Source: an uncultured Gemmatimonadales bacterium
GTDB lineage: Bacteria; Gemmatimonadota; Gemmatimonadetes; Gemmatimonadales; GWC2-71-9
DNA: 64,000 bases
Assembly (NCBI GenBank): GCA_963726955.1
Contig: CAVSEC010000006.1
Location: forward strand, 350,601-414,600
Direction of reading: 5' to 3'
How positions within the stretch are numbered: the stretch's first letter is position 1; each line of letters opens with the position of its first letter. The position numbers and the translations under genes are program-made. Below are positions 6,302 to 62,126 of the stretch, one piece after another. The notes beneath the pieces were generated by a model that was given only the letters and a program-made list of their open reading frames with translations, made no database searches and was not told where the DNA came from.

Positions 6302-6462
6302 CGGTGTCGAGTTCCGGATTCCGGGTGTCGAGTGCGAAGCATCGGCCTTCCCGCATGGGCAGGAGAGCAATACTCATGCTACAAAGGTAGTCAGCCGGCA
6401 CCGCCGCCATCCAGAGGCTAACACCAACGGGGACACTGCTGTTCCCTCCAGGGCGGCGCTCC

Positions 6463-7569: not shown

Positions 7570-7598
7570 GACAATCCTCAGGCAGAAGGCTTGGCTGG

Positions 7599-7639
7599 GC
7601 GATTGCGAGCGATTGGCGATTGGGCGATCGGGCGATCGG
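7599..7639. repeat. Tandem array of five GCGATYGG octamers in the intergenic spacer between the Gsp-like ligase and the GCS2 gene
   Basis: Direct reading of the plus strand gives gcgattgc-ga-gcgattg-gcgattgg-gcgatcgg-gcgatcgg. It lies within the 101-nt spacer 7570..7670. Confidence 0.8.
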
Positions 7640-7670
7640 CCGGTGAGCCGACGGCCCGAGGGCTCGCTGC

Positions 7671-16327: not shown

Positions 16328-17196
16328 CGTGGCCGCGCCACGGTCGTGATGCGGCGGGCGAGTTGCCGGATCGGCTCGGCGCCGGTCACCACCTCTGTGT
16401 AGCTGGCGCCGGCGCCGCGCCACGCGCGCGCCACATCCTCCCGCCAGTCGCCGAAGCGCCGCTGATATTCGGCGCGGGTTGCCGCGGGGAGCGGGCGGCG
16501 CAGGTCGGCGGCCTCCGGGTCGGTGCAGAGGAGCGTCTTCCGCTCCGGCTCCAGCTCGGTAGCCGACACGATGTGCACGGCGTGCACCTCGCCGCCGGAC
16601 GAGATGAACCGACCGGCCAGGCCGAGCAGCGCCTCGGCATCGCCGAGAAAATCACTGAGCACCGCGAGCCGGGCGCAGCGTCGCAGCACCGGCGCGACGG
16701 CCGGCGTCAACGGCAGCGCACCGGATGGGGGCGTCTCGACGGCATGCATCATCTGGTCGAGGACGCTGCGCCGAGTGCGGGGTTCGATCCATCGCGTTCC
16801 CGACTCGTGCACCAGAAGGAGGCCCACCGGGTCGCCGTCCGCGCGGCTAATCGCAGCGAGCGCCAGCGCCAGCTGCCGCGCGAGCTGCCACTTTGCGAGC
16901 GTATCCACAGGAAAGGCCATCGACGCGCTGGCATCGAGCACCACGACGGTCGGCAGCAGGGCGCGCTCCGGCGACAGCCGGACATAAACCCGGTCGGTGC
17001 GGGCCACCAGCTTCCAGTCGATCCGCGCCGGGTCGTCGCCCTGTCGATAGGGGCGATACTCGACCAGCTCCGCGGACGCACGGTGGGTCGTCGCCACGTG
17101 GGCCCCGGGCAGGGCGGCGCGGGCCCGGCGTCTCGCAGCCCAGGTGAGGCCGCGGACCGCCTCCAGGACCGGGGCGAATGCCGCGGTGTCCGCCAT
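16324..17196 (-). CDS. DUF58-domain protein (vWA-like, MoxR partner)
   Basis: Intact 290-aa ORF with the DUF58 signature blocks [17 protein letters not shown] and [10 protein letters not shown]. It lies 3 nt after the MoxR stop. Confidence 0.85.
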
Positions 17197-17199
17197 GGG

Positions 17200-18232
<1,033 letters not shown>

Positions 18233-19793: not shown

Positions 19794-21143
19794 CTACTCC
19801 CCCTGCGCCTCCAGCAGCTTCTGGATCAACCGCTCCAGCGCCCGCTCCGAACCGGTGTAAAGCCCGAGAAAGTCCGCGAGGATCAGGATCCCGCGCTTGT
19901 CGATGATCAGGGCGCCGCCGCCATACATGACTTGCCCGAGTTCCGCGATCGGCTGCATTCTCCGCCGGCGATCGGGGGCGGGGAGGGCGGTGAACTGCGT
20001 GGTATAGACACCAACCGTCGCGTCCCCCTTCCACTCCTCGAGCACACGCCGGCTCAGCATCGCCGCCTCCTCGGCCGGCTCGAGCTGCACCCGGCCATTG
20101 AAGTGCCCGTGCGTCTGGGCCAGTAGCACCAGGTCCAGTGCATCCCCGAATCGGGCCTTCAGCCGGTGGACAGTCGCTGCGAGATTATCGTAGGGGCCGT
20201 TCGATGGATCGACGTATTGAACGATCGTGATGTGTCCTTGCCGCGGGAGCGTCGCCCCCGCTCCGGGGCGGTGAAACCAGAAATCGGGATGCAGCTCCGG
20301 AAAGTGCTCGCCGAGGAGACCGAGACCGGCCCCGTAGAGGGACCGTTCCTGGTTGAGCCCGTACAGCTCGATCGCCCTGGCCTTGAGCGCTCGTACCAGG
20401 GAATCCGCCCGGGGATGCTGCAACAGCTCCAGCAGCAGCTCCTGACTCTGCACGCTGAGCAGCATCCCATCGGTTCCGCCGCGCGCCGTCAGCGGAAGCG
20501 AGGCGTAGTTCTTCCGCTGCAGGCCGATCTCCCGGCGCATCGCGCTGGTATCGAGTCGGGCGGTCGCCACCCAGCCGGGCGTCGCATGCTGGCTGCTCCA
20601 GCCGCTGTCGTCAGGCAGGTAAGGGCGCTCACCGATGGCGCCCAACGTATCCAGCCAGGCGGCCATCCGCGCCGACACCTCGAGGCTCCGCGGCAGGCCA
20701 CTGGAGTAGGCGTGCATGCCATACCAGACCACATGGATCGAATCGTCCAGCGTCCGTTCCCCGCTCAGAAAGCGGTGGAATGCCTTGTCCGCGAGGGTAT
20801 CCTCGGAAAGCATCCGTCCCAGGAAGAACAGCGCCGGCACGTCCTCCGGCGGCGCCGATGCGACGCGGGGCCCGGCAGGAACCACGATCTTCAGACAGGC
20901 GGCTCCGGCGGCACGGGCGTCCGGGTCCACCCGACGTGCCTCATCGTATGGGAGTGTGTCGAACGGCTCACCCCAGGTCTGGAGAACGGCCACCCGCCGG
21001 GCCACCGACACGCAGGCGGCGGGTCGGGGATACTCGGCATAGGGACCCGGCGCGGCGGCCGGCGACTGTGCCAGGAGTGGCTGGGCGAGCCCCGCCAGCG
21101 CGAGCACACCCCCGAGGCACCGGCCAATCGCGAGGCGTCTCAT
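19794..21143 (-). CDS. Secreted protein with C-terminal thioredoxin/redoxin-like region lacking CxxC
   Basis: Intact 449-aa ORF whose ATG at 21143 overlaps the PmbA-like stop (ATGA). It has a signal peptide (LGGVLALAGLAQPLLAQ). The C-terminal blocks ITIVQYVDPSNGP, LVLLAQTHGHF and LIIDKRGIL resemble a TlpA/redoxin fold without the Cys pair (motif-level impression only). Confidence 0.5.
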   Translation of the reverse strand: MRRLAIGRCLGGVLALAGLAQPLLAQSPAAAPGPYAEYPRPAACVSVARRVAVLQTWGEPFDTLPYDEARRVDPDARAAGAACLKIVVPAGPRVASAPPEDVPALFFLGRMLSEDTLADKAFHRFLSGERTLDDSIHVVWYGMHAYSSGLPRSLEVSARMAAWLDTLGAIGERPYLPDDSGWSSQHATPGWVATARLDTSAMRREIGLQRKNYASLPLTARGGTDGMLLSVQSQELLLELLQHPRADSLVRALKARAIELYGLNQERSLYGAGLGLLGEHFPELHPDFWFHRPGAGATLPRQGHITIVQYVDPSNGPYDNLAATVHRLKARFGDALDLVLLAQTHGHFNGRVQLEPAEEAAMLSRRVLEEWKGDATVGVYTTQFTALPAPDRRRRMQPIAELGQVMYGGGALIIDKRGILILADFLGLYTGSERALERLIQKLLEAQGE

Positions 21144-22537
21144 ACCGCGTCCACCAGTCGGGTGAAGTTGAAGCTGCTCGCCTTGAGCGGGGGCACGACC
21201 ATCGGCGCCCTGGGCCGGAAGATCGGCACCGGCTTTCCCATCGCCTCGACCCCGTTCAGCATGAGGAGGGGGGAGTCGGTGAAGCGGAAGTTCTTCACCG
21301 GACGGGTGACCTTGCCATTCTCGATGAGCCAGAGCCCATCGCGGGTGTGCCCGGTGGAGAGCAGCGAAGCGTCGTCGAGCGTCTCGATCCCGTAGAAGCG
21401 GGTCACCAGCAGCCCGCGCTTGGTGCTCTTGATCATCTCCTCCAGCGTCGACTCTCCGCCACTCATCCTGACCGCCTCGGTGTACGGCAGCGCCCGGTTC
21501 TCGTTGAACTGGTTGACGGCGTAGGTCCGGTTGTAGGCCAGCGCCATGAGGACGCCATGCTCGAACCAGGGGGCGCGCACCATCGGCTCGCCGTGGTCGT
21601 TGAAGGGACAGACGCCGAGCAGCGGGTCGGCAGGATCGAAGGTGATGTCGATGCGCGGATCGATCAGCCGCTGCCCGAGCTTGGAGAAGCCCGCTCGGCT
21701 CCGGTCGGCGAAGGGCCCTATCCCGGCCTCGGCCGGCTCACGCATCCACGCCGACACGATCAGGTCGAGGAGGTCGCCGACTGCCTGCGGCTCAAGAACC
21801 ACGGTGTAGCGGCCCGGCTCAAGGGCAGAGGGGAGGCGGCTGGTTTCGCACTTGGTACGGGCGCGCTCCGCCAGCGCGACGGAATCGATCGTGGCCCAGT
21901 CATACGAGGAGGCGCCGGCCCAGCCCGACCCGCCCCCCTTGGGATCGCGGACGGTGAGCGAGCATTCGGACGAGGATCGAGTCGCGTAGAGGTCCTCGCC
22001 GTCGGTCCCGATCCAGAAATCGGCGTCGGCCCCGACCGACAGGTAGCCGGCCGACCAGAGCCCGGCCGCGGCGGAGGGCTGGATCAGGCGATCGACCAGT
22101 TCGGCGCGGGCCTCTGGGAGGAGGCGAGTCGAAGCGTCGCTCCACACCACCGGGGTCGGAAAGTCGGTGGGCCGGGGCGGCAGCTTGTCGGTGTCCGGAA
22201 TCGTCCCGTTGTCGCGGAGAAGCAGCTCCAGCTCGGCCACGGCCTCCGCGAGGCCGGCATCGTCAGTGCGGCTGGTCGTCAGGTCCATCCCCCCCAGCCC
22301 GAAGCGGCGCTGCAGCGTCACTGTGAGGTCCCGCCGATCGCCGGCCGTCGTGATCCGGTTGCGTGCCCAGCGGACGTCGCCCCGCCAGCTGTTGGCGATG
22401 CCGACCCGCATCTCCCCCGGCCCGGTCTGGAGCTTCATGGCCCGTCGAGCGATCTCCCGACACTCCGCGTGCGTGAGCAGCGGGACACCCGCCGCCGGGC
22501 GGAGAGCGCGAATCGGCTGAAAGAGAGCAGAAAGCAC
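21140..22537 (-). CDS. PmbA/TldE-family protein, no signal peptide
   Basis: GTG at 22537 lies 2 nt after the TldD-like stop. ORF 21140..22972 upstream of that point overlaps the previous gene and is Arg/Gly noise. C-terminal blocks (GLLVTRFYGIE, DGLWLIENGKVTRPVKNFRF) are typical of the PmbA_TldD family. Confidence 0.8.
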   Translation of the reverse strand: MLSALFQPIRALRPAAGVPLLTHAECREIARRAMKLQTGPGEMRVGIANSWRGDVRWARNRITTAGDRRDLTVTLQRRFGLGGMDLTTSRTDDAGLAEAVAELELLLRDNGTIPDTDKLPPRPTDFPTPVVWSDASTRLLPEARAELVDRLIQPSAAAGLWSAGYLSVGADADFWIGTDGEDLYATRSSSECSLTVRDPKGGGSGWAGASSYDWATIDSVALAERARTKCETSRLPSALEPGRYTVVLEPQAVGDLLDLIVSAWMREPAEAGIGPFADRSRAGFSKLGQRLIDPRIDITFDPADPLLGVCPFNDHGEPMVRAPWFEHGVLMALAYNRTYAVNQFNENRALPYTEAVRMSGGESTLEEMIKSTKRGLLVTRFYGIETLDDASLLSTGHTRDGLWLIENGKVTRPVKNFRFTDSPLLMLNGVEAMGKPVPIFRPRAPMVVPPLKASSFNFTRLVDAV

Positions 22538-22539
22538 GG

Positions 22540-24201
22540 TTATCTCGTGGGATCGATGACAGCCATCTGGCGGACCAGGATGGGCGGGGCTTCGACGGTG
22601 TGCCAGGTGGTCTGGGCCGGCTCTCCCTTTTGCATCTCTACGCCAATCGGCAGCACACTCTCGGGGCCGCCGAAGGCAAGAACCGATTTCCATAACTCCG
22701 GGGCGCGGAACATCACGGCGCAGTTCTTCAGTCGGGCGACCTTCTTTCCTTTCCGGACCTCGAAGTACCGGGTGACAGGCAGCGCCTCGTCGCCCATGGT
22801 CATCCCGTTGAGCGCGTTGAAATCCATGCTCATGTCGGCCCCCTCCACGGCGATCCCGGTGGCCATGCCGCTGACTAGTGTGGCGTAGTCGGCGCGCTCC
22901 TTCCCCGGGGCCAATCGCAGGTTGGGCCGCTGCAGCTGGGTGGCGTCCAGCGCGGTGGCGCCACCCGCGCACCCGTGCGAACGGACCGGCCGGCCGGCCT
23001 GGGCGTAGCGTTCCCGGAGCCAGGTGGCGGACTCGCGCGTCGTCTGGAAATCAGCGAGGACTCCGTCCTGCACCAGGGGGAATTCCTCGGGCGCCACGCC
23101 TTCCTCGTCCCAGCGTACCGTGGCGAGCCCACCCGGCAGCGAGCGGTTGGCGCTCACCTGGAGACCCGGGACGCCGACCGGCTCGCGGCCCATCATCGCA
23201 ACCGGGTCGGTGAGGTAGCTGGTGCCGCCGGCATTGGCCTCATACCCCATCGCCCGGTCCATCTCGGTGGCGGTCCCGATGGTGCCGGAGAGCAGCCGGG
23301 CGGTACTGCGCTGGTCGAACACGACGTCGTAGCGGCCGACGTCCACCGCCTTGAGCGGCAGGGCCATCTCCGCCTCCTGCTCGGCCTGCACCCGGCGCAC
23401 GATCTCCGGCCAGGGCGCCCGGCCGACGTACTCCCACCCCCGCCCCGCGCGCGGGCAGGCATACGCCGAGTTGGGATCCCACTGCTCGACGATCTGATGA
23501 TCACGGAACCTGGGCCGCGCGCCGACGCCAATCCGGGCCTCGGTGGCATAGCGCACCTGAGTGAGGTAGCTCCCCTCGGCATTGGCGAACGCCGTCTCCA
23601 GGCGCGACAGCGAGACCGCAATCGCCGGCACCCCCCATTCGCGGAGGGTGAGATAGGCGGTACCGTTGACGGTGTCGAGTATCTCGTCGCGGGCGACGGT
23701 GAAGGGATCCCGCTCGATCGGCGTCGACCAGTGACCATCCTTCACCACCGGCGTGGAGGCCAGCTCCACCGGAGCCATCCCCGCCCGCGCCGTGGTCCGC
23801 GCCTGAGAGACGGCAGCCGCGCCTAACCGAGCGGCTTCGTCGAGCGTCCAGATAGTGCTCGATGAGAAGCCCCAGGCTCCACCGACCAGGGCGCGGACCC
23901 CGATCGCCAGCGCGTCCGCCCGGTCCCCGTAGATCCCGGGAGCGACCGTCCCGGTGATGCCGGCGCCGCCACTGACGAACTCGTGCATCTCCCAGGTCCG
24001 CAGGTGCGACACCCGCACCTCGGCGTGACGCGCGCCGGCGCTGGTGGCTGCCTCCAGCGCCTGGGCGGTGAGGCGGCGTACCTGATCGTCATCAAACAGC
24101 AGCGGTACACGGCGCTTCGGCAGGAACAGCCCGCGCGGCAACACCGCGCCAGCGGCGAACAGAGTGCCCGCCTGAACGAAATCCCGGCGACTCCAGCTCA
24201 T
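22540..24201 (-). CDS. TldD-family protein with twin-arginine signal, HExxxH motif absent
   Basis: Intact 553-aa ORF. The N-terminus MSWSRRDFVQAGTLFAAGAVL is a Tat motif (SRRDFV). It resembles TldD along its length, but where E. coli TldD has LLHEAVGHGLE this protein reads LLSGTIGTATE. Confidence 0.85.
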   Translation of the reverse strand: MSWSRRDFVQAGTLFAAGAVLPRGLFLPKRRVPLLFDDDQVRRLTAQALEAATSAGARHAEVRVSHLRTWEMHEFVSGGAGITGTVAPGIYGDRADALAIGVRALVGGAWGFSSSTIWTLDEAARLGAAAVSQARTTARAGMAPVELASTPVVKDGHWSTPIERDPFTVARDEILDTVNGTAYLTLREWGVPAIAVSLSRLETAFANAEGSYLTQVRYATEARIGVGARPRFRDHQIVEQWDPNSAYACPRAGRGWEYVGRAPWPEIVRRVQAEQEAEMALPLKAVDVGRYDVVFDQRSTARLLSGTIGTATEMDRAMGYEANAGGTSYLTDPVAMMGREPVGVPGLQVSANRSLPGGLATVRWDEEGVAPEEFPLVQDGVLADFQTTRESATWLRERYAQAGRPVRSHGCAGGATALDATQLQRPNLRLAPGKERADYATLVSGMATGIAVEGADMSMDFNALNGMTMGDEALPVTRYFEVRKGKKVARLKNCAVMFRAPELWKSVLAFGGPESVLPIGVEMQKGEPAQTTWHTVEAPPILVRQMAVIDPTR

Positions 24202-25313
24202 GGCGTCGACTCATCTACCACGACGATCACGCCGTGCGTGCCCCAGATGGTGCTCTGGTAGTGATAGACCCCCGGCTGGGTGAAGCGCCGGGCGCGGAAG
24301 AACTCACCGCTGCAGTCTCCGTTGCAGTCCAGCGGCCATCCGAATGACGGGATGCTGCCGGTACCGTCGCAGTCGACTCCGTAGTTGGCGCAGGACGTCC
24401 CTTCCGGCACCGACTCCAGCGGGCCGGGATTGTCGAATTGCATGTCCATGAGCTCCCCGACCGGGATGCCGAAGTTCCACCACTCCACGACGGCGCCGAC
24501 CCCCATCCGCACACTGTCGGGACTGAAGCTTCCCACCGGACTGTGCTGGGTATCGTAGGGACCGAGGACAAAGATCCGGGCATAGCCCGGCAGGCCGATG
24601 GTGTACGCGAGCGTGTCGGTGAAGCTCTCGCCGTAGGCGGTCATCGTCGCCACGAAACGGACGGGCCCGGGCCGGACCCCGGCCACGACCCCACCGAAGG
24701 GGTCGATCGACGCCGTGGTGACGTCCAGCGAGGTGAAGTGCACCGGCAGACCGAAGAGGGGGTCGCCGTTCGGATCGAGGACCGTCGGACTGAGAAAGCG
24801 GTACGGCTCTAGCAGCGTGCCCGCGAGCGCGTACTTGGCGCTGTCACCCGGCGCGGGCTGGAGGGAGAACGAGGCAACGGTCAGGCCGGCGGGATCATCG
24901 GTGACCGCGACGATGGCGGTATCTGCGTGGGTGATGCCGTTGGCGGTCAGCGACGCGACGATGGTGGCACCAGGCGTAAGGTCGATCGCGGTGAGGAGCC
25001 CGTTCGAGTCGACCGCGACCGTGAGGCCGTTGCTGGTCGAGAAGCGGACCGCCGGGAGGCCGGCGATCGGCGTCCCATCGACGGTGCGGGGCGTCGCGGT
25101 GAGCCGCAGGGTGTCGTAGGGCGCGGCGATGGCCAGCGTGATGCCGTGATGGTCGAGTTCGAGCGCCCAGTAGGCCGTGGCCGCGTCATCCGAGGTACTG
25201 GTCACGGTGTCGGAGTTGCAGGCCCCGACGGTCAGCCCGAGGAGCGCCAGCCAGAGAGCGGCGCGGGGCGCGGGCGACCGCGCGGGGCGGAAGGCATGGA
25301 ATCGCATGCTCAC
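24198..25313 (-). CDS. Lipoprotein with Ig-like (Big_2-type) repeats and a Cys-rich cupredoxin-like C-terminal domain
   Basis: Intact 371-aa ORF with ATGA overlaps at both ends. Lipobox LLGLTVGAC. Repeated beta-rich segments (LRLTATPRTVDGTPI, VASLTANGITHADTAIVAV). The C-terminus ends GVYHYQSTIWGTHGVIVVV and has four Cys in SCANYGVDCDGTG...DCNGDC. Confidence 0.6.
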   Translation of the reverse strand: MSMRFHAFRPARSPAPRAALWLALLGLTVGACNSDTVTSTSDDAATAYWALELDHHGITLAIAAPYDTLRLTATPRTVDGTPIAGLPAVRFSTSNGLTVAVDSNGLLTAIDLTPGATIVASLTANGITHADTAIVAVTDDPAGLTVASFSLQPAPGDSAKYALAGTLLEPYRFLSPTVLDPNGDPLFGLPVHFTSLDVTTASIDPFGGVVAGVRPGPVRFVATMTAYGESFTDTLAYTIGLPGYARIFVLGPYDTQHSPVGSFSPDSVRMGVGAVVEWWNFGIPVGELMDMQFDNPGPLESVPEGTSCANYGVDCDGTGSIPSFGWPLDCNGDCSGEFFRARRFTQPGVYHYQSTIWGTHGVIVVVDESTP

Positions 25314-26716
25314 GCTCCCCGATCGATGCAGCCGGAGAAGCGCGGGTTGTAGCGCCGCTCCTCCGCCGGAATCGGCGCATTGACGCTGGGGCCGTAGAGG
25401 GCGCCGCTGAGGTGGCGTCCGATCGGGAAGACGGTACTCGCGTCGCGTCCGTACTGCCTGACAAGGCGCCGCAGGTCGCCGAGTCGCCGGCCGGTGAGAT
25501 AGAACCAGAAGCCCCGCTCGCGGAAGAGCAGGTCTACCCGCGCCTCCGGCGTGCCCGGGTCCACGAGGTCCGGCAGCGCCGGATCACCGGTGGCCTGGCG
25601 CAGCAGATTCAGCTTGGCCAGCCACCCGGGCACATCATTCGCAGCGAGCGCCGCCTCGGCCTCGATCAGCCGGGCCTCCCGCCAGTCGGCGACGCTGACC
25701 GGGGACCCGCCCGTCGGGAGCTGATTCGCCGGGACGTACCGCGGAGTGCCGTTGTTGTCGTTCGAGTAGGTCACGGCGAGGGTGCGCGGATCGCCGCTGG
25801 ACATCCAGTCCAGCCCATTGATCCCCTCGGCATCCGACATCCCCGGCCCCGACCCAGCCTCCTGGCTCATCTGGTACATGAAGCTGGGGGCAGCCGGCTG
25901 GGGCGCATCGACAGTGCCGATGTTGTTGTCGCTGTACTCCAGCAGGTACTCGAAGCCATCCGGCACATTGGCGACGGCGGCCGCCGCTGCCGCGTACTGG
26001 CCCAGCGCGAGCAGCGCCCGCCCCTTGCCGACACTCGCCATGTACTCGATCCGGCTGCTGTCCGTGGCGCCGGCGAGTGCCGAGTCGAAGATCGCCACGG
26101 CATGCTGGTACACCTCCGCCGTGCTCGACCCCGGCTGCAGGGTGTAGCCCTCGGGGTCCACGGTGCTGAGTGGAATCCCGGAGCAGAACATGTCGGCGAG
26201 GTAGATGTCGGCGTAGCCCTCCATCGCCCGGAGGTGTGCCGCGAGCGCCGGCGACTCCGTCGGAGCGAAGTTGCCGAGCAACCACGCGCCCACCCGGGCC
26301 TTGGCCCGCAGCGCATGGAGCCCCTTGTACGGCGCCACGTATGGTGCGGCAAAGCCCAGACCGAAGGGCGAGAGCCGCGCCTCCGCATCCGGATCGGTGA
26401 ACTCCGGCAGACTGCGTCGATCCATGAGTGGATTCACATCGGTGTACGTCTCCATCGAGCCGAGCTCATCACTGAGCAGCCCGGACTGGATGATGAACGA
26501 TTCGAACTCGTCGGCGCCGAGCACCGTCCGTTCGGCGATCACCGCGCCTCGATAGGCGCGCAAGGCGCCCTCGTGGGTCTGCGTCTCCTTCGGATCGCTC
26601 ACCCCTGGCGGCAGCTCGCCGTTGCCCACGATGTCCGAGGGAGAGCAGGCTGCCGCCGCGAGCAGCAGGCCGAGCAGCGGCGGAGCGCAGCAGAGGCGGT
26701 AACAACGCATCGACAT
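25310..26716 (-). CDS. SusD/RagB-family outer-membrane lipoprotein
   Basis: ATG at 26716 (MSMRCYRLCCAPPLLGLLLAAAACS, lipobox) lies 23 nt after the SusC stop. It is a 468-aa helical/TPR-like protein in the canonical position after SusC. The C-terminal blocks RERGFWFYLTGRRLGDLRR and RYNPRF are SusD-like. Confidence 0.75.
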   Translation of the reverse strand: MSMRCYRLCCAPPLLGLLLAAAACSPSDIVGNGELPPGVSDPKETQTHEGALRAYRGAVIAERTVLGADEFESFIIQSGLLSDELGSMETYTDVNPLMDRRSLPEFTDPDAEARLSPFGLGFAAPYVAPYKGLHALRAKARVGAWLLGNFAPTESPALAAHLRAMEGYADIYLADMFCSGIPLSTVDPEGYTLQPGSSTAEVYQHAVAIFDSALAGATDSSRIEYMASVGKGRALLALGQYAAAAAAVANVPDGFEYLLEYSDNNIGTVDAPQPAAPSFMYQMSQEAGSGPGMSDAEGINGLDWMSSGDPRTLAVTYSNDNNGTPRYVPANQLPTGGSPVSVADWREARLIEAEAALAANDVPGWLAKLNLLRQATGDPALPDLVDPGTPEARVDLLFRERGFWFYLTGRRLGDLRRLVRQYGRDASTVFPIGRHLSGALYGPSVNAPIPAEERRYNPRFSGCIDRGA

Positions 26717-26739: not shown

Positions 26740-29700
26740 TCAGAAGCCGAAGCGAAAGCCGAAGGACCAGGCCCTCGGCAGCGGCAATTGGCCGGTATCC
26801 GCGATCACATTGCCCGTGGAGTAGGCGTTCACACTCGGATCCTTGCCGTGGTAGTTGCTCCACAGCCCGAGGTTGGTGCCCTGCACCGTCACGCTGGCCG
26901 TGCTCGCGCCCATCGCATGCGCGATCCGCTCCGGGAAATTGAAGGCCACCGCCAGCGAGTTGAAGCGGAGGGTGGAGAGCACCTGGGTCAGGCCGTACGG
27001 CGTCTCGCTGCGGACCACGATGGCAGCCTGCTCCCCCAGGGGCGCCTTCGGATCGTTGGCGCCACGCAGGGTATAGGGATTTGCGGTCGCCGTCTCGTTC
27101 ACCTGGAGCTGGCCGTGGGTGTAGGAGAAGCCCGCATTCACCGTGACCAGTCCGCGGGCGAAGGAGAGGTTGGTGAACATCCCCGCCTCGTAGTCCGGCT
27201 CGCTCGCGCCGAGGAAGACCTCCTGGTCGCCGAGCTGCACCTCGGAGCGGGTGATGATCCCGTCGTGGTTGGCATCGGCGAAGTGCAGGATCGGCAGGCC
27301 CCAGCGTCCGAAGAGCGGATACCCCTTCACCACCCGGGTGCCGCCCGGGCCCTCGATTGTGCCGACCTGGCCGGTGCTGAGCACGATGTTGCGGTTCTTG
27401 CTGACGTGGAACTGGGTGCCGACCGTCACGAAGTCGCTCCGCAGCAGGTTGGTGCCGAGGGAGACCTCGAAACCGCTGTTCCGCACCCGGCCGATATTGA
27501 CCAGCACCGACCCGCCCCCGTTCACCGACGGCGGCAGGGGCATCGGCACCAGCGCATCCAGCCGGATCTTGTTGTAGGCGGAGAACTCGAAGGTGAGCTT
27601 GTCATCGAGAAGGTCGGCGTCGAAACCTCCCTCGAACTCGCTGGACTTCTCCGGCCGGAGATCGGCGTTGCCCAGACTCGTCAGGTCGCTCTGATCCACC
27701 GTGCCGTTGATGAAGCCTGGGCTCACCTGGTAGAGACGGAGCCGATCACCGGACCCGGGCTGCACCCCTGCCTGGCCGTAGGCGGCGCGGAGGCGGAGCG
27801 TGCTGAAGAGCTTCTTGAACGGGAAGAACGGCTCGTCGGAGAGCAGGTACGAGAGCGAGACCTTCGGGAAGCGGGCCAGTGCCTGGTGCGCCCCGTAGGT
27901 ATCCCCGCCGTCGAGCCGGAGCCCGGTGGAGAGGAAGAGCCGCTTGTGTTCCAGCGTCGGCTCGACGTACCAGCCGAAGGTGCTGATCTCGCTGTGCTGG
28001 GGCGTGGTGATGATCTTGCGCGCCCCGTCGAGTCCGTTTGCACCTGGGATCAGCTCCGTCCCCTGCGCGATCAGATCGCTGCTCCGGGTCCGGCTGAAGT
28101 TGCCGCCGACCGCCGTGCGGAGCCGGAAGGTGCCTCCCAGCGGCAGATCGGCGATGGTGCCGAGGTTGACCGTGGTCACCGCGGAGCTGCCGGAGCCAAC
28201 GTTGTAGAACCCGTTGGTGACATCGAAGATCGACGCGGAGTTGATGTCCAGATAGGGATCGCCCGGTGGCAGCGTGGGCTGGCGCGACTCGTCGTGCCGG
28301 TCGATGAGGTTGAGCCCGAGATTCGCCGTCGCGCTGAGCCAGCCGAGGGGCCGCCAGTTGAGCGTCGAGGCCTCGGTGAATGCGGTGGAGACGGCCGTGC
28401 TCCGCATGCGAAACCCGGTGGTCAGCGTCGAGCGGTAGTCGCTCGAGCTGCCGGGGTACGGGCCGATGGTAACCCCGGGCCAGAAGCGGTTGTTCACCGT
28501 GTCGGCATAGACCCCCTGCAGCTGGGCTAGCTGATCCTCGAGGGTGGAGCGGCGCTGGCTGGAGCGATCGATGGTGCTGGTGAAGGAGAAGGTGGCCTTG
28601 GGCGACAGCTCGACGCTGAGGTTGCCGGTCGCGGACCAGTCGGAAAGCCCATGAGGCCGGCGCATCCAGCCGGGGGCCGGGGATCCGATCAGCGCCTCGT
28701 AGCGGCGCACCTCGTAGTCCGGCAGCTTCAGGAGCCCCGTCTCCTGGCTGTAGCTGCCGGTGATCGCGTAGCTGATGTTGGACGCGCCGCCGCTCACGCC
28801 CACGTTCAGTCGCTCGCTATGCCCGATGCCAAATGGTGTGAGGCTCGGATCGTTGAGCGCCTGGTAGCGCACGGTACTGTCGACGACGCAGCCGTAGGCG
28901 GTCAGTGGGCAGCGCGTGAGATAGCCGGTCGCGATGTCGTGACCGAACCGGGTGTAGGAGAGCGGGTACTTGCCCGGCTGCGTGGTGAGCCCCACATCGG
29001 TGCCGACTTCCCACCGGGTGGCCCCCGCCTTCCCACGCTTGGTGGTGATCACGATCACCCCGTTGGCCGCATCGGCCCCGTACATCGTGGCCGCCGACGG
29101 CCCCTTGAACACCTCGATCGTGGCGATGCTGTGCACATCGATCTGATCCAGCGGCGAGCGGGTGGGCACCTGGTCGGTGAGCGTCGTTCCCGAGTTCGGA
29201 TTCGTGCCATGGATGGGCTTGCCGGTGATGGGATCCACCACGGCGAGATTGTTGGCCCGCGCGTCGGACTGGTCGGCGTAGATCCGCACCCCGTCGACGA
29301 TCACGATCGGGTCGTTGCTGCGGGTGATGCTGTTGAGCCCCCGCAGCCGGAGCCGGGTGGGATCGCCGGGCGCGCCGGAGGTGTGGGTGGCCGTGAGCCC
29401 CGGCACGCGGGACTCGAGCAGCTCCGCCACGCTGTGCACCGGCTGGGTCGCCACGATGGAGTCGGCCTGAATCGTGGTGATGGCGTTGCCCAGCTCGTAG
29501 CGCCGCTGGGGACCGGTGGCGGTGGTGACCAGATCCTGCATCCGGGTCGGTGCGACCACCAGCACAAAGTCGGCGCTCTCGGTGGCCGAGTCCTGCACCT
29601 CGATCACCTGGCTGGCACTGTGGTAGCCGATCCGGCGCGCCCCGACGGTGTATCGCCCCGCGGGGACCGCCAGCCGGTATCGACCCAGCCGGTTGGTCAG

Positions 29701-30273
29701 TACCCGGAGGTGCAGCGTATCGATGAAGACCTCGGCCGCTTCGATCGGCACATTGGTGGCGGAATCGGTCACGAAGCCGACGATCGCAGCCGTGGTCGGC
29801 GCAACCGCCGGCCGCGCCGCGCGACCGCGACGCACCAGCGTGAACTGATCCTCCGAGGTGACCACGACGTCCACCCCGGCATCGATCAGGACGTCGGTCA
29901 GCACCGCTGCGACGGTCATGTCCTCGGCGTGGAGCGTGACCCGGTTGGCGAGGGGGACATCCGTCCCGCTGTAGGCGAAGCGCAGATGCCCGGCGTGCGC
30001 GATCTCCGCAAGCGCCCGTTCGAGGCTGATGCCCTCGAAGGCGAGGGTGATCCGCCGGCGCAGCAGCGCGACCCGGCTCGCATCGAGCGGGACCGGCGCA
30101 CTCTCGGAGGCGCTCAGGCCGAAGAACTGTACCGCGGCGCCGCGGGAGGTATCGCCGGAGCCGATCACCTGGGCCGGCAGGATTGTCGGCAGCGTGGCGA
30201 GAACGAGGAGCGCGAGACTCCCCGACAGACCCAGACGCCGGGACGGTGCGGCGCATCGAGCGTGGTGGATCAT
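26740..30273 (-). CDS. SusC/RagA-type TonB-dependent receptor with N-terminal STN signalling domain
   Basis: Intact 1177-aa ORF. It contains an STN-like segment (ITLAFEGISLERALAEIAHAGHLRFAY), a carboxypeptidase-regulatory-like domain (IVGFVTDSATNVPIEAAEVFI...GRYRLAVPAGRY), a plug (IEVFKGPSAATMYGADAANGVIVITTKRG) and a beta-barrel ending FGFRFGF. Confidence 0.9.
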   Translation of the reverse strand: MIHHARCAAPSRRLGLSGSLALLVLATLPTILPAQVIGSGDTSRGAAVQFFGLSASESAPVPLDASRVALLRRRITLAFEGISLERALAEIAHAGHLRFAYSGTDVPLANRVTLHAEDMTVAAVLTDVLIDAGVDVVVTSEDQFTLVRRGRAARPAVAPTTAAIVGFVTDSATNVPIEAAEVFIDTLHLRVLTNRLGRYRLAVPAGRYTVGARRIGYHSASQVIEVQDSATESADFVLVVAPTRMQDLVTTATGPQRRYELGNAITTIQADSIVATQPVHSVAELLESRVPGLTATHTSGAPGDPTRLRLRGLNSITRSNDPIVIVDGVRIYADQSDARANNLAVVDPITGKPIHGTNPNSGTTLTDQVPTRSPLDQIDVHSIATIEVFKGPSAATMYGADAANGVIVITTKRGKAGATRWEVGTDVGLTTQPGKYPLSYTRFGHDIATGYLTRCPLTAYGCVVDSTVRYQALNDPSLTPFGIGHSERLNVGVSGGASNISYAITGSYSQETGLLKLPDYEVRRYEALIGSPAPGWMRRPHGLSDWSATGNLSVELSPKATFSFTSTIDRSSQRRSTLEDQLAQLQGVYADTVNNRFWPGVTIGPYPGSSSDYRSTLTTGFRMRSTAVSTAFTEASTLNWRPLGWLSATANLGLNLIDRHDESRQPTLPPGDPYLDINSASIFDVTNGFYNVGSGSSAVTTVNLGTIADLPLGGTFRLRTAVGGNFSRTRSSDLIAQGTELIPGANGLDGARKIITTPQHSEISTFGWYVEPTLEHKRLFLSTGLRLDGGDTYGAHQALARFPKVSLSYLLSDEPFFPFKKLFSTLRLRAAYGQAGVQPGSGDRLRLYQVSPGFINGTVDQSDLTSLGNADLRPEKSSEFEGGFDADLLDDKLTFEFSAYNKIRLDALVPMPLPPSVNGGGSVLVNIGRVRNSGFEVSLGTNLLRSDFVTVGTQFHVSKNRNIVLSTGQVGTIEGPGGTRVVKGYPLFGRWGLPILHFADANHDGIITRSEVQLGDQEVFLGASEPDYEAGMFTNLSFARGLVTVNAGFSYTHGQLQVNETATANPYTLRGANDPKAPLGEQAAIVVRSETPYGLTQVLSTLRFNSLAVAFNFPERIAHAMGASTASVTVQGTNLGLWSNYHGKDPSVNAYSTGNVIADTGQLPLPRAWSFGFRFGF

Positions 30274-31380
30274 CGATTCTTCCCTGGGGCACGATCGGGG
30301 AGGACGAGGAGCAGCGAGCCGCGGTGTTCGTAGCGGAGGCCGAGAGCGAGGGCGAGCGTGCGCAGCACCTGTTCGGTGGTCTCGTGTTCGAAGGTGGCAG
30401 TGAACGGTCGGGCGGCGAGGGTGGAATCCCCCAGTTCGATCTCCAGGTCGTACCAGATCGACAGCCGGTAGAGGACCTCCCGGAGCGACGTCTCCCGGAA
30501 GACCAGTCGGCCGTCGCGCCAGGCCAGGTAGCTCTCGACATCCACGTTGCGGCGGCGCACCAGCCGGCCGTCGCTGCCGACCTGTCCCAGGTCGGCCGGC
30601 TCCAGCAGGAGACTATCACCCATGGGAGTGTCAGGCTGCTCGGCGCGCGGTCGGGACGTGGAGCATCACCGAACCCTCCGCCACCACCACGCGGAATATC
30701 GATTCCCCATGATCGGACACCGCGAAGGTGGTTCCGACGTCCTCGGTCATGCCCCGGCTGCTGTAGACCCGGAGCGGGTGCTCCGGATCGTGGGCGACCT
30801 CGAACAACGCATCGCCATCCAGGAAGAGCTCCCGCGACCGGCCGAATGCCTTGGCGGCGTACTGCAGCGTACTGGCGGGCCCCAGCAGCACTCGGCTTCC
30901 GTCAGGCAGCGCGAGCCTGGCGCGCTGACCGCGCTGCGTGCTCAGCACCGCCATCGGCTCGGGCGTTTCCGCCGGCGGCGTCTCCCGGTCGCGGAGCAGC
31001 CAGGCGCCGGTCGCCGCGCCGAACAGCACCAGGGCCAGCCCCGCTGCGATCAGAGATGGACCAGTATGCGGCAGCGCAAAATGCCGGGGAGCGGCCTCGA
31101 CCCGGAGCCGGTCGGATCTGCGGACTTCGACCAGGGCCGAGCCGGCAGCACGGTCCGCCTTCTCCTTGAAGGTCTGGAGTGCGGCCTCGGCGTCCCACCG
31201 CTGCAGCGGACGCCCCGCAACTTCCCAGAGGGAGCGCAACCGCTCCACCTGGCCCCGGCGCGACGGGTCGGCGTCGAGCCACGCCTCGTACCGGGCGAGA
31301 TCCTCCGGCGGCAGCTCCGCCGCGAAGTAGGCGGCGAGCACGCTCCAATCGAAGTCGTCTGTGCCAAAGAGTGGATTCAC
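30270..31380 (-). pseudogene. FecR-family anti-sigma factor, one frame break near 30630
   Basis: GTG at 31380 (MNPLFGTDDFDWSVLAAYF). A TM helix (LIAAGLALVLFGAATGAWLL) and a FecR domain lie in ORF 30631..31380. The C-terminal domain (YLAWRDGRLVFRETSLREVLYRLSIWYDLEIE) is in ORF 30270..30623, in a different frame. The stop overlaps the SusC start (ATGA). Confidence 0.8.
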
Positions 31381-31449
31381 GGGATCCTCAGTCGAACGGC
31401 GATCGCGTCAGGGGAGCCACATCACCAGATATCACGCTTCAGCCGGAGT

Positions 31450-31463: not shown

Positions 31464-32063
31464 TCACCCGACCAGGAATGGGCCGACGAGGAGCGACCCG
31501 GCCGCAACGAGGCAGAGTACGAGGTAGGGAGCCAGCCGCTGGCGCAGGGTCTTGAGCGCGCGGCCCATCTGGGTCTCGACGGTCTTGATCGAGATCTCGA
31601 GAGTGGCCGCGATCGCGGCATAGGTGAGGTGCTGCTCGCGGTGCAGCGTGAAGATCAGACGGCGGCGTTCAGGGAGTGCCTGTACCTCACGCTCCAGGGC
31701 GATCGCCAATTCGCTGAGGTCGGATTCCTCCGCCGCCGGCGAGCGCTCGCCGAGGACGTCACCGGCGCGGCTGGCGAGCGTGAGAAAGCGCCAGCGCTCC
31801 CGCCGACCGTGGGTGATCGCGCGGTTCCGCACCGACGCGAACAGGTATGGCACCGGATCGACGAGGTCGACCTCCCCCCGCCGGGACCAGAGCGAAAGGA
31901 AGAGGTCCTGGACGATATCCTCCGCCGCCGCCCGGGACCCGGTGATCCGGTACGCGAATTGACACAACCGGGCGTAGTGAGCCAGGAAGAGCGCGTCGAA
32001 GTCCGGCGAGGTTGCCGGAACCGGCGCGACCAAAGGACGCCGCGGTCGGAACGGAAGGGTCAT
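31464..32063 (-). CDS. ECF (group 4) sigma-70 family RNA polymerase sigma factor
   Basis: Intact 199-aa ORF. Region 2 (AAEDIVQDLFLSLW) and the region 4 helix-turn-helix (LTYAAIAATLEISIKTVETQMGRALKTLRQ) are present. Confidence 0.9.
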   Translation of the reverse strand: MTLPFRPRRPLVAPVPATSPDFDALFLAHYARLCQFAYRITGSRAAAEDIVQDLFLSLWSRRGEVDLVDPVPYLFASVRNRAITHGRRERWRFLTLASRAGDVLGERSPAAEESDLSELAIALEREVQALPERRRLIFTLHREQHLTYAAIAATLEISIKTVETQMGRALKTLRQRLAPYLVLCLVAAGSLLVGPFLVG

Positions 32064-32235: not shown

Positions 32236-35067
32236 CTACTCCGGCAGCAGGGTTACCCGGATCCGGCCCGCCTTGTCGAGGAACTGCTCGGCGGCCATCC
32301 TGACCTGCGACTCGGTCAGCTCCTCGGCCTCCCGATCCGAGGGAATCTCCGCCAGCGGCCAGCCGCGCTGGTCCGCCACTGCGATCGCCGAGAGCCAGTA
32401 ACCATTGGTCTTCCGCGCCGTCTCGAGTCCGCGACTCCGCTCGGTCCGGTAGCTGTCCATCTCGGCCGCGGTCGGACCATCGGCCACGAGATGCTCGATC
32501 TCCTGATACACCGCCGTGGTCAGCTCCTCCTGCCGTCCCGGATCGGCGTCGAACTCCACACTGATCCGATAGGAGATCCCGGGGACAGGCGTGATTGCGG
32601 AGCTCACCGAGACGCCGTACACCCCTCCCAGCACCTGCCGCAGCCGGTCCTGCAGGCGCTGACGGAGGACGTGCTCCATCGCGAGGGCCGCCACGGACTC
32701 GAGACGGGACACCGGACCCTCGCGATGAAAGACCAGTGCCGTCGTGCTCCGCGGCTCCCTGCCGCGGTGCAGCACCCGTTCCACCGCTCCCTCGGGCGGC
32801 GTGATGCTGCGGCGGACGAGGCTGTCTGCCCGGGGCTGCGTCGGGAGCCCGCCCAGGTACCGCTCGAGCAGCGGGACGATCGCCTCCGGGTCGAAATTCC
32901 CCACGAGAACGAAGGTGAAGCCCGAGGCGTCGCCAAATCTCTGCTGGAAGAATGACAGCGATGCGGTCGGATCGAGCTGCTGGACGAAACTCGAATCCAG
33001 CAACCGCAACTCCGGACTGTGATTCGAGAGCAGCAGGCGGAGCGTGTCCGCCATCGCCTCATGCGGGTCGGCGCTGCGGTTCCGCACGGCCTCATCGAGG
33101 CCGGCGCGGTACCTCGCCACCACCAGCGTATCCAGTCTCGGCGCCGTGGACTGCAGGTACACCAGTTGCAACAGGGTTTCGAGGTCGGCCGGAGCGCTGG
33201 ACCCCGAGAGACCCTCGGCGTAGCGATTGATGCTGCATCCCAGGGTCACCACCCTGCCAGTCAGCATTCGGGAGAGCGTCACCGGATCGAAGCGCGAGAT
33301 CCCGCTGCCGCAGATAATCGATTGTGCCGTCGCGGCGGGGATCAGTACCGCCTCGGCCGCTGCCGCGAAGCCGCCCGATCGATAGCTCGAGAACAGGATC
33401 TCGCCGCGATTGAACGTGGTCGGCTTGAGCAGCACCCGCACACCGTTCGACAGCTCGAGGCGCTGAACGCCGATCGCCTCGATCCGGTCGGAGCGCAGCA
33501 CCCGCCCACCGACCGGTTGGTCCTTCATCAGGATGGTCTCGGCGGCAGGCTCAGTGAAGCTGGCGAGCCGTTCGGCAGGGCCGGTGACGACGGCGAGCAG
33601 CTCCTCCTCGGTCGGCTTGGGGCCGGCGGCCGGCACGCTGGCGATGACGATCGGTGGGCTCACCTTGCGGCGCGCATCTCCAGCGGTGCGAATCTCGACT
33701 TCGGTGAGCAGGGGCAACAGCCGCCGGCTCAGCTCGAGCTGGGTGTCGAAGGAGAGGGTCGGGTCGCCGACGAGGTGGTCATCGACGAGCTGCGCCGCCA
33801 GCGAAGCCGAGGAGATCCGCTCCCGCTGGTCCTCTGCCTGTGACAGGCCGCGGAGCATGTCGGTCCGGGCCCGGGTGAGTTCGGTCGCCGTGAACCCCTC
33901 CGTCTCCACCCGGCCGACTTCGGCCAGCAGCGCCTTGAGCGCGGTGGTGATGCCTCCTGCCGGTGCTCCGGCGGAGAGCTGGTAGGCCTGGACTCCGCGG
34001 ACCAGTCCGCCATCTCCAGCGCCGGCGCTCAGGAACGGCGGTGCGGCCTCCATGGCACGAGCCCCCAGCCGCTCGTTGAGCATCGCATCGTAGAGGTTCA
34101 GTGCGATCAGCCGGCGGAAATCGGCTTCCGTCCGCGTCGGTCGGCTGCCCTGCCGGTAGAGGACGGTGACACTCGTGCTTGAGATCTCGGAGTCGGCGAG
34201 CACCGCCGCCCTGGCGGCCTCGACCGGCGGCACCTCTCGCGTCGGCTCCTCCCGCGGCGGGCCCCCTGGGGGAATCACTCCGAACTGGCGCCGCACCCGC
34301 GCCTCCAACGCAGCGACGTCGATGTCGCCGACGATCACGATCGCCATCCGCTCCGGACGATACCAGTCCGCATAGAATCGCCGTACGGCCGATATCGGCG
34401 CCGCCGCCACCAGGGCTGGCACGCCGATCGGTGCCCGGTCCAGGTAGCGGCTGCCCCGCAGGATCACCGCGGACTGGCGCTCGGACAGCCGCTGTCCCGC
34501 GCCGAGCGTGGAACGCCACTCCTCGACGACAACTTTGCGCTCCCGCAGCAACTGCGCAGGATCGAGGGTCAGCCGATGGGCCCACTCTTCGAGCAGGGTG
34601 ATCCCGGCCGTGAGCAGGGCGGCACTGTCGGTGGGGACCGTCAGCTGATAGACGGTCTCCTCGTACCCGGTCCGGGCATTCACGTCGGCGCCGACCCGCA
34701 AGCCGATCCGCTCGAAGAACTTCCAGACCGAGTTGCCGGGAAACTGCGGGGTCCCGTCAAAGGCGAGATGTTCGAGGAGATGCGCCAGCCCGAGCTGGTC
34801 CTGGTCTTCGTTCATCGAGCCGGCGTCGACCACCAGCCGCAATTCGGCCCGCTGGGCCGGGTAGCTGTTCTGCCTGATATAATAGGAAAGGCCGTTCGCC
34901 AGCACGCCGTGCCGGACCGCCGGGTCCACAGGGAGAATCGGGCTTGAATCGGTGCTCGCCTGTGCGGCGGCATCCCGGGGTTGAACCGCCAACGCCGGGA
35001 GCAGCAGCAGGGTGCTTGCAACCACGCGACCAACCAGCGCCAGCTTCCGATCCATGGGGAGTTCCAT
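32236..35067 (-). CDS. Secreted two-unit M16 (pitrilysin/insulinase) zinc peptidase
   Basis: Intact 943-aa ORF with a signal peptide (LLLLPALAVQPRDAAAQ). The inverted zinc motif HLLEHLAF (HxxEH) is present. The length fits two M16 active/inactive domain pairs. Confidence 0.9.
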   Translation of the reverse strand: MELPMDRKLALVGRVVASTLLLLPALAVQPRDAAAQASTDSSPILPVDPAVRHGVLANGLSYYIRQNSYPAQRAELRLVVDAGSMNEDQDQLGLAHLLEHLAFDGTPQFPGNSVWKFFERIGLRVGADVNARTGYEETVYQLTVPTDSAALLTAGITLLEEWAHRLTLDPAQLLRERKVVVEEWRSTLGAGQRLSERQSAVILRGSRYLDRAPIGVPALVAAAPISAVRRFYADWYRPERMAIVIVGDIDVAALEARVRRQFGVIPPGGPPREEPTREVPPVEAARAAVLADSEISSTSVTVLYRQGSRPTRTEADFRRLIALNLYDAMLNERLGARAMEAAPPFLSAGAGDGGLVRGVQAYQLSAGAPAGGITTALKALLAEVGRVETEGFTATELTRARTDMLRGLSQAEDQRERISSASLAAQLVDDHLVGDPTLSFDTQLELSRRLLPLLTEVEIRTAGDARRKVSPPIVIASVPAAGPKPTEEELLAVVTGPAERLASFTEPAAETILMKDQPVGGRVLRSDRIEAIGVQRLELSNGVRVLLKPTTFNRGEILFSSYRSGGFAAAAEAVLIPAATAQSIICGSGISRFDPVTLSRMLTGRVVTLGCSINRYAEGLSGSSAPADLETLLQLVYLQSTAPRLDTLVVARYRAGLDEAVRNRSADPHEAMADTLRLLLSNHSPELRLLDSSFVQQLDPTASLSFFQQRFGDASGFTFVLVGNFDPEAIVPLLERYLGGLPTQPRADSLVRRSITPPEGAVERVLHRGREPRSTTALVFHREGPVSRLESVAALAMEHVLRQRLQDRLRQVLGGVYGVSVSSAITPVPGISYRISVEFDADPGRQEELTTAVYQEIEHLVADGPTAAEMDSYRTERSRGLETARKTNGYWLSAIAVADQRGWPLAEIPSDREAEELTESQVRMAAEQFLDKAGRIRVTLLPE

Positions 35068-56307: not shown

Positions 56308-56400
56308 GGCAGTCCGTGGGGGAGGAGGAGGGCTCAATCTAGTCCGTAAGATGGAGTTACAAGGTGCGGTAGTGACTCGTTCTTGACAAAAACGGGCAAA

Positions 56401-56416
56401 ATGTAAACGTTTACAT
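56401..56416. promoter_or_regulatory. Perfect 16-bp palindrome ATGTAAACGTTTACAT, a LacI-family operator candidate
   Basis: The sequence equals its own reverse complement and fits the LacI/GalR operator core TGnAAnCGnTTnCA. It sits in the AT-richer divergent region, 13 nt downstream of a TTGACA hexamer (56383..56388) and 113 nt upstream of the LacI start. Confidence 0.65.
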
Positions 56417-56528
56417 CGCCTTTCCAATCCGACAGAATCGTCGGAACTCGACCAAAAATGTGTTCCCGCGAGTCGCCGCTCCGCCCCTCTGGGCAGGCTG
56501 GCGGTCCCTCGTCGCTGAGCTTCCGCTG

Positions 56529-60535: not shown

Positions 60536-60609
60536 CTGACCTCTCAACCGTGGGGCATCCACTCCGGGTGCCTCACGGTGCTTCACCCCTCACGGGGGCG
60601 GAACGACCC

Positions 60610-62046: not shown

Positions 62047-62060
62047 GCCCCATGTCGCCC

Positions 62061-62118
62061 CGAGCGCAGCGAGGGATCTCTCCTGGTGCACACCGACGGA
62101 TCCCTCGGTCGCTGCGCT
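62061..62118 (+). promoter_or_regulatory. Long imperfect intercistronic hairpin (17 bp in two helices) between GH144 and the binding-protein gene
   Basis: GAGCGCAGCG-AGGGATC, a 20-nt loop, then GATCCCT-cggt-CGCTGCGCTC. It ends 9 nt before the ATG at 62127. Confidence 0.55.
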
Positions 62119-62126
62119 CCCTCGGG

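Follow-up and report, generated by a model that had tools for sequence, protein, structure and literature searches.

What does a TldD/PmbA protein pair do once its metal site has gone, and why would only one of its two subunits carry an export signal? This question is raised by two adjacent genes, here called A and B, on the minus strand of a 64,000-nucleotide stretch of contig CAVSEC010000006.1 (the window; G+C about 69%) from an uncultured Gemmatimonadales bacterium. The zinc site was found to be missing across a large family of relatives, and the genes lie within a SusC/SusD-type uptake cassette that occurs many times per genome; the pair may form a periplasmic peptide-handling cage that is probably non-catalytic. 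No second copy of the pair was found inside the 64-kb window. The two genes are:

22540..24201, minus strand: gene A, 553 amino acids, TldD-type subunit (open reading frame; Pfam PF19289 and PF01523)
21140..22537, minus strand: gene B, 465 amino acids, PmbA/TldE-type partner (open reading frame; Pfam PF19289)

The N-terminus of A (MSWSRRDFVQAG; in longer form MSWSRRDFVQAGTLFAAGAVLP) is fixed because only three codons separate the preceding in-frame stop from its ATG. The protein ends in ...CCCACGAGATAA (...GATCCCACGAGATAA), and its stop codon is followed by CC and then by the GTG that starts B, confirming on the sequence the 2-nt gap and GTG start given in a preliminary description of this DNA. 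The deposited gene call for B (protein P0121) starts at Met34 and gives 432 amino acids. Homologues are 460-470 amino acids long with alignments that begin at residue 1 of the GTG-started protein, and the deposited call is probably 33 codons too short.

Both proteins matched the PmbA/TldD C-terminal domain (PF19289), A with an E-value of 2e-18 and B with one of 3e-31. The AlphaFold model of A (predicted local distance difference test, pLDDT, 90.5; predicted template-modelling score, pTM, 0.89) had its best PDB matches in E. coli TldD chains (5njf_C; E 5.7e-31, template-modelling score, TM, 0.76), with TldE/PmbA chains behind. The model of B (pLDDT 93.9), in which residues 1-15 are disordered, scored TM 0.84-0.86 in Foldseek to the PmbA-type structures 1vl4 and 1vpb compared to 0.71 to TldD, and the solved sequences nearest to B were again 1vpb (3e-10) and 1vl4. 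A profile of the A family built from 138 sequences aligned with hhalign to E. coli TldD over TldD residues 34-477 (probability 98.1%). By profile, both families were nearest to a pair from Bacteroides, above the E. coli proteins, with probabilities of 99.4% (E 7e-22) for A against a TldD-like protein with a twin-arginine translocation (Tat) signal and 98.2% for B. Since A matches TldD best and B matches PmbA/TldE best, in profiles and in models, the two are supported as a TldD-type subunit and its TldE/PmbA-type partner. The predicted model of A includes the clamp and brace additions of the TldD-type fold, and B is predicted to have the PmbA-type fold with no metal site, encoded beside a TldD-like subunit.

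A motif search of both proteins returned no HExxxH, HExxH or HxxEH, in line with the earlier report that HExxxH is absent from either. The preliminary description had also aligned LLSGTIGTATE (A residues 303-313) to the E. coli segment LLHEAVGHGLE, and two profile alignments agreed with this placement. H262, E263 and H267 of E. coli TldD fell opposite S305, G306 and T310 of A, and alignment to the Bacteroides Tat-signal TldD gave the same three residues, with the Cys ligand of its CGKDGQ segment opposite K525. Across the A family, the C-terminal GxCGKxGQ of TldD, which supplies the third metal ligand (Cys454, or Asp in some species), is replaced by KGEPxQ. Both His ligands, the Cys ligand and the catalytic Glu are all missing from A. 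The earlier alignment was therefore right, and a proper alignment reveals no intact metal motif elsewhere. The site of A is very probably not a canonical zinc site.

Two other possible sites were considered and rejected. A hidden metal motif in the A and B families was discarded as neither had conserved His or Cys columns; H409 and C411 of A were conserved among close relatives only (H 38% and C 75% in the deep set). An Fe-S or other Cys cluster shared by A and B, as a cause of Tat export, was discarded as C411 of A and C26, C192 and C230 of B were not co-conserved. A and B together show neither a conserved pair of His residues nor a set of Cys residues in common, and so nothing points to a cofactor as the reason for Tat export.

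HExxxH was absent from all 120 of the best A homologues and from all 120 of the best B homologues. A matched 399 clusters (one representative per 50% cluster) at E <= 1e-30, and among the best 150 A-family representatives a single HExxxH string was detected, at residue 94 and not at the aligned site. Neither protein contained the motif in any of 76 A/B pairs taken from loci. The survey covered about 400 relatives in all, none with HExxxH at the aligned site, and on these sequences the loss of the zinc site is a defining trait of a large paralogous family and not a peculiarity of one locus. To judge from record labels, the named members of the A family are all Gemmatimonadota, and a third homologue search, seeded with a low-GC paralogue, returned only Gemmatimonad-labelled records. 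Homologues are named in databases as 'TldD/PmbA family', 'metallopeptidase TldD-related' or 'predicted Zn-dependent protease', and the latter two names are probably wrong about the chemistry of the family. Loci from an assembly labelled 'Gemmatimonas phototrophica isolate T2.bin.114' (L045, L047, L048, L052, L055-L058, L075, L076, L080, L084) have a G+C content of 44-47% compared to ~69% in the window, and the label or the binning may be wrong.

The positions aligned with H262, E263 and H267 vary freely within the family, with a top-residue frequency of 0.18-0.30 and an entropy in the 69th-92nd percentile. The block directly after the lost motif (residues 311-330; ATEMDRAMGYEANAGGTSYL) is the most conserved of the family. 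In E. coli TldD, Glu270 and Asp272 of the central helix are salt-bridged to Lys456 of the clamp, and Cys454 links the clamp to the helix via zinc (PMC5810440). The tether residues E270 and D272 are kept in A as E313 (E or Q in 93% of the family) and D315 (D in 94%), Cys454 is replaced by K525 (K in 88%) and Lys456 by E527 (E or Q in 86%). A direct salt bridge may have taken the place of the metal-mediated link between clamp and helix, which would keep the architecture of the cleft without a catalytic centre. Compared to E. coli TldD, A carries a six-residue insertion after the central helix, following D315, which is specific to its family (R316 96%, G319 99%, E321 85%). B, for its part, contains many invariant charged residues.

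The N-terminus of A carries the twin-arginine motif SRRDFVQ, followed by the hydrophobic stretch AGTLFAAGAVLP. The RR motif was present in 112 of 120 close homologues and, among the full-length cluster representatives, in 117 of 138; the sequences of these two sets that lack it include truncated or mis-started ones. Of the 76 paralogues from loci, 75 carried it. PF10518 is listed in the precomputed Pfam annotation of several A homologues, and NCBI calls at least two of the homologues Tat-signal proteins. A (V/I)PRPLL segment follows the hydrophobic stretch in most A-family members, and its basic residue fits a Tat c-region. For B, no hydrophobic N-terminal stretch was detected in any of the 76 pairs. 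An upstream start that would give B a signal peptide was ruled out, as the in-frame extension, which reaches 22972, overlaps A, and its sequence, rich in Arg, His and Gly, lacks a hydrophobic core. B homologues begin at the same place as B. The twin-arginine motif that the preliminary description had seen on the TldD-like protein thus recurs in nearly all paralogues, and its claim that the PmbA-like partner has no signal peptide agrees with the extension, with the homologue starts and with the disordered residues 1-15. A putative signal on A only was observed in the window and in the 76 pairs surveyed, save for one A protein without RR.

The two genes were tightly coupled. B followed A in 81 of 82 public-genome loci. 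The A stop and the B start were no more than 4 nt apart in 70 of the 76 pairs, and they overlapped by 4 nt in 38. The matrix of distances among A proteins was correlated with that among B proteins (r = 0.85), with a mean identity of 46% for B compared to 43% for A. E. coli TldD is active only together with TldE, and both are needed for activity and stability; each can form homodimers in vitro, the TldD homodimer being unstable and inactive without TldE (PMC5810440). TldD binds peptides by backbone beta-strand pairing in a sequence-independent manner (PMC5810440).

The pair lies within a cassette of genes on the same strand, of which the following were identified besides A and B:

32236..35067, minus strand: secreted M16 (pitrilysin-type) zinc peptidase (Pfam Peptidase_M16 and M16_C; Sec-type signal)
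31464..32063, minus strand: extracytoplasmic function (ECF) sigma factor (Pfam Sigma70_r2 and r4_2)
30631..31407, minus strand: FecR-like anti-sigma factor (Pfam FecR, E 4e-16)
26740..30273, minus strand: SusC/RagA-like TonB-dependent transporter (Pfam Plug, barrel and CarboxypepD_reg)
25310..26716, minus strand: SusD-like outer-membrane lipoprotein (lipobox; position directly after the SusC-like gene)
24198..25313, minus strand: Ig-like-repeat lipoprotein, 371 amino acids (lipobox LLGLTVGAC; weak Big_1 match)
19794..21143, minus strand: P449, secreted protein of 449 amino acids (Sec-type N-terminus MRRLAIGRCLGGVLALAGLAQPLLAQ)

In order of transcription, the window encodes the M16 peptidase, the sigma factor, the FecR-like protein, the SusC-like and SusD-like proteins, the Ig-like lipoprotein, A, B and P449. 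The pair is part of a tightly packed operon. The stop codon of the lipoprotein gene overlaps the ATG of A, and the stop codon of B overlaps the ATG of P449 (ATGA in both cases). The M16 gene is located upstream of the cassette, ~2 kb from the SusC-like gene and past the sigma and FecR genes, and its HLLEH motif is intact (HxxEH at residue 109). The transporter matched SusC/RagA models best and has an N-terminal extension with a CarboxypepD_reg domain and a weak STN match (E 5e-4). Its Plug and barrel domains passed their thresholds, and it scored 345.8 bits to TIGR04056 against a cut-off of 368 and 44.8 to TIGR04057 against 46.2. The SusD-like protein, with a probable start at the Met before LLGLLLAAAAC, had no Pfam match, and its homologue in locus L004 matched SusD_RagB weakly. 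Both the SusC and the SusD assignment lie slightly under curated family thresholds. Homologues of the Ig-like lipoprotein gave a faint Big_2 match. The end of the lipoprotein in the window (...GVYHYQSTIWGTHGVIVVVDE) resembles by eye a cupredoxin C-terminal strand with Ser at the position of the copper-binding Cys.

The same gene order was found in two contigs with ~50% identical homologues. Across the 82 public-genome loci the order was kept, with a SusD-like gene in 76, a SusC-like gene in 72, the sigma factor in 66, a FecR-like gene in 65 and a lipoprotein gene in 58. An M16 gene was located no more than 10 kb from the pair in 24 loci, and a gene of 450-530 amino acids occupied the P449 position in nearly all. 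The cassettes often stand in tandem, head-to-tail, with the next sigma/FecR/SusC set starting right after the previous cassette. For copy number, the loci listed were the best 80 of 519 confirmed matches. Of these 80, 43 came from one Gemmatimonadaceae assembly (L014-L083, CAYTFY01 contigs), which puts its copy number at 43 or more, and 12 came from a second (L045-L084, JBEBRK01 contigs).

Among 75 proteins scanned (P449 of the window and 74 genes downstream of the pair) 14 were M13, 10 M16, one M28 and one M20 peptidases, and none of the 74 downstream genes encoded a glycoside hydrolase. The cassette is probably a peptide cassette. P449 itself matched nothing in Pfam, NCBIfam or the PDB; a profile of 42 sequences likewise gave noise matches to helical repeats only. 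Its 42 positional homologues share the invariant residues Q26, Y38, C44, R50, C83, G346, E359 and D391, and its C-terminal part (GKVxLVxF...LVDxxGxI) resembles by eye a thioredoxin-type fold that lacks CxxC. Immediately beyond the downstream end of the cassette, the window encodes an AAA ATPase of the MoxR type together with a DUF58 protein (16324-18228, minus strand), and the same position in locus L003 (9974-15731) is occupied by MoxR, DUF58, BatA and DUF4159. A separate, sugar-related-looking locus on the plus strand of the window (56376-63380) encodes a LacI-type regulator, an OMP_b-brl_4 TonB-dependent receptor, a putative glucoamylase and an ABC solute-binding protein, in contrast to the peptidase-only content of the TldD/PmbA cassettes.

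Apart from A and B, every readable cassette protein either carries a signal for export or for lipoprotein processing or belongs to the outer membrane. Hitch-hiking of B on A is therefore the simplest reading for B, and a periplasmic location of the pair is likely. The preliminary description, which had suggested export of a pre-assembled heterodimer, is supported in part. We propose that a closed, hollow heterodimer of A and B, like that of E. coli TldD/E, forms in the cytoplasm; it would cross the membrane through the Tat pathway by the single twin-arginine signal of A, with B as passenger. The cognate SusC/SusD-like transporter and the Ig-like surface lipoprotein would bring peptides or small proteins across the outer membrane, and the sigma/anti-sigma pair would set the expression of the cassette. 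In the periplasm the shell would take up the imported peptides and bind or hold them in a paralogue-specific cleft, not cutting them; hydrolysis would be left to zinc oligopeptidases of the M16 or M13 type, whose genes close many of the cassettes or lie at other genomic sites. Binding without cutting is the most likely role of the shell, given that its scaffold is under strong constraint and its catalytic positions are under none. Heterodimer formation, co-export, the peptide substrate class and the lack of catalysis are inferred here, and we give the whole picture, a periplasmic and probably non-catalytic peptide-handling A/B cage for each uptake cassette, an even chance of being right. More tentatively, and with a less than even chance of holding, the zinc-less protease cage might be a substrate-specific periplasmic receptor or holding chamber for each SusCD-type transporter, exported by Tat hitch-hiking and diversified to more than 40 paralogues per genome, so as to form a peptide or protein counterpart of polysaccharide utilisation loci.

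Several observations weigh against a non-catalytic, periplasmic cage. The Tat profile scores of A are just below curated cut-offs (TIGR01409, 16.5 compared to 16.7; PF10518, 16.0 compared to 22.7), and the Tat assignment rests mainly on conservation within the family. Many A members have no obvious AxA cleavage site and show the conserved PRPLL stretch instead, and the signal might stay in place as a membrane anchor. Heterodimer formation, Tat dependence and localisation of the pair are drawn from sequence and from analogy. Some cassettes have neither an M13 nor an M16 peptidase, and there A/B or the P449-like protein may supply the chemistry. Finally, the conserved insertion (R316, G319, E321) beside the old site could be a new catalytic or metal site.

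The last two points bear on the reading that A/B is still an enzyme, a peptidase or another hydrolase, whose remodelled site would use conserved acidic and basic residues of ATELDR-x2-G-x-E-A-N, with or without a differently bound metal, or residues of B. That the most conserved block adjoins the lost motif and includes the highly conserved insertion, that B has many invariant charged residues, that the minimal cassettes have no other recognisable hydrolase and that dozens of paralogues are under strong purifying selection, like the enzyme sets of polysaccharide utilisation loci, all count in its favour. We know of no precedent for metal-independent catalysis in a TldD fold, which counts against this reading, as do the free variation at the centre of the cleft and the lack of a conserved His pair or Cys set in A or B. 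Part of the conserved block is moreover structural in TldD, namely the clamp tether E270 and D272 and the N..GTS stretch (PMC5810440). We regard a remodelled enzyme as unlikely, while giving it appreciable weight. That A/B is instead what remains, without function and in decay, of a periplasmic TldD/PmbA protease would account for the loss of all catalytic residues, and is effectively refuted by the conservation data: the frames are intact, 399 clusters match, dozens of residues are invariant, synteny is conserved, and the models are highly confident. We assign it virtually no probability.

A non-catalytic A/B cage also presumes that both subunits leave the cytoplasm. Dedicated cytoplasmic chaperones for Tat substrates exist, and B, with no signal peptide of its own, might stay behind as an assembly or proofreading chaperone while A alone is exported as a monomer or homodimer; TldD and TldE are each able to form homodimers in vitro (PMC5810440). 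Such a role fits poorly with a B protein that has a full-size PmbA/TldE fold, is as conserved as A (46% compared to 43%), is translationally coupled to it and has diverged with it (r = 0.85); homodimeric E. coli TldD, lacking TldE, is neither stable nor active, and the other readable cassette proteins are all extracytoplasmic. We consider this arrangement improbable. Still less likely, in our estimate, is a cassette for a glycan or other non-peptide polymer in which A/B would be a new carbohydrate-active or binding module. SusC/SusD-type transporters with sigma/anti-sigma pairs are best known from glycan loci, and Ig-like repeats, as in the surface lipoprotein, are common in glycan-binding proteins; against this, the downstream genes yielded 26 peptidases (M13, M16, M28 and M20) and no glycoside hydrolase, and the parent TldD fold binds extended peptides (PMC5810440).

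TldD/E has so far been understood as a cytoplasmic zinc/iron 'pencil-sharpener' peptidase, and its many homologues are generically annotated as metallopeptidases. The family described here is a large TldD-type family that keeps the cage and not the metal site, with a predicted role in the periplasm, and it is the marker of an uptake cassette, repeated many times over and not described before, in Gemmatimonadota, a poorly studied phylum of soil and freshwater. Import of peptides or small proteins by the cassettes, if it takes place, would offer a handle on how Gemmatimonadota feed and a natural system in which to see what a TonB-dependent protein importer needs in the periplasm. A/B is also a likely cofactor-free case of Tat hitch-hiking. 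If the receptor reading is true, a new class of periplasmic binding protein would have arisen from the TldD/E protease. Within the papers covered, full-text searches found no literature linking TldD/PmbA to Tat export, SusC/SusD or Gemmatimonadota, and none on zinc-less TldD families or on such Gemmatimonadota cassettes.

Compared to E. coli TldD/TldE (PDB 5NJ5; PMC5810440), A/B belongs to the same two-subunit fold family, with only one subunit TldD-like, and is presumed to form an equally closed shell around a peptide cleft. The E. coli proteins are cytoplasmic, have no signal peptide and are encoded by unlinked genes, whereas A has a putative Tat signal and the A and B genes are adjacent and coupled in an uptake cassette. 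In E. coli TldD, HExxxH and Cys454 bind Zn or Fe and Glu263 is the catalytic base; in A all four residues are absent, with Lys in place of Cys.

In Tat hitch-hiker complexes such as the small and large subunits of hydrogenases and DmsAB, one subunit carries the signal and its partner has none, a layout shared with A/B, and the oligomer must fold before export. The known hitch-hikers carry redox cofactors, whereas no cofactor-binding pattern was detected in A/B. The principle of hitch-hiking is mentioned in PMC10924467.

Coupling of TonB-dependent import to a periplasmic M16 protease has precedents in Fus (FusA/FusC) and YddB/PqqL (PMC6793856). The likeness is a TonB-dependent transporter genetically linked to a secreted M16 enzyme, which in those systems processes the imported protein, the one in the window having HxxEH and a signal peptide. 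Those systems differ in having FusA-type transporters, in occurring in Proteobacteria and in serving iron acquisition, with no SusD-like lid and no TldD/PmbA pair, and they are not described as highly multi-copy, unlike the Gemmatimonadota cassette. PMC6793856, on import systems, makes no mention of TldD, PmbA or Gemmatimonadota.

The SusCD loci of Bacteroidota share with the cassette a SusC-like barrel, a SusD-like lipoprotein lid, an extra surface lipoprotein, ECF sigma/FecR regulation and many paralogous loci per genome, and a SusCD-type transporter that imports peptides is known in RagAB (bioRxiv 10.1101/755678). Here, however, the phylum is Gemmatimonadota and the putative periplasmic module is always the zinc-less TldD/PmbA pair with a P449-type protein, in place of diverse glycoside hydrolases. 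Linked carbohydrate-active enzymes, as expected of a strict polysaccharide locus, were not found, the 74 downstream genes scanned including no glycoside hydrolase.

The closest likeness in signal arrangement was in Bacteroides thetaiotaomicron, in the pair that includes BT3649, the protein of structure 1VPB, a structural-genomics entry annotated as 'putative modulator of DNA gyrase'. A Bacteroides thetaiotaomicron-like contig from a human-gut metagenome (L089) contains the BT3649 locus (100% identical over the 206 residues queried), with a 515-amino-acid TldD-like protein (5789-7336) directly upstream of BT3649 (7368-8687). The TldD-like protein begins with the Tat-type sequence MNMDRRNFLKTGG and BT3649 has no signal peptide, the same asymmetry as in A/B. 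The TldD-like protein retains HEAIGH and CGKDGQ, which are lost in A, and in the one contig examined no SusC/SusD genes adjoin the pair. The preliminary description had raised whether Tat-signal TldD homologues generally lack HExxxH, and the Bacteroides protein shows that they do not; the one-sided Tat arrangement is therefore independent of zinc-site loss. The Bacteroides TldD-like protein is presumably an active zinc peptidase, and the pair implies a TldD/E-type protease in the periplasm of Bacteroides that is probably active. The Bacteroides pair, with its orphan structure 1VPB, offers a comparator with an intact active site, and a periplasmic pair of this kind looks like the source from which the Gemmatimonadota family was derived.

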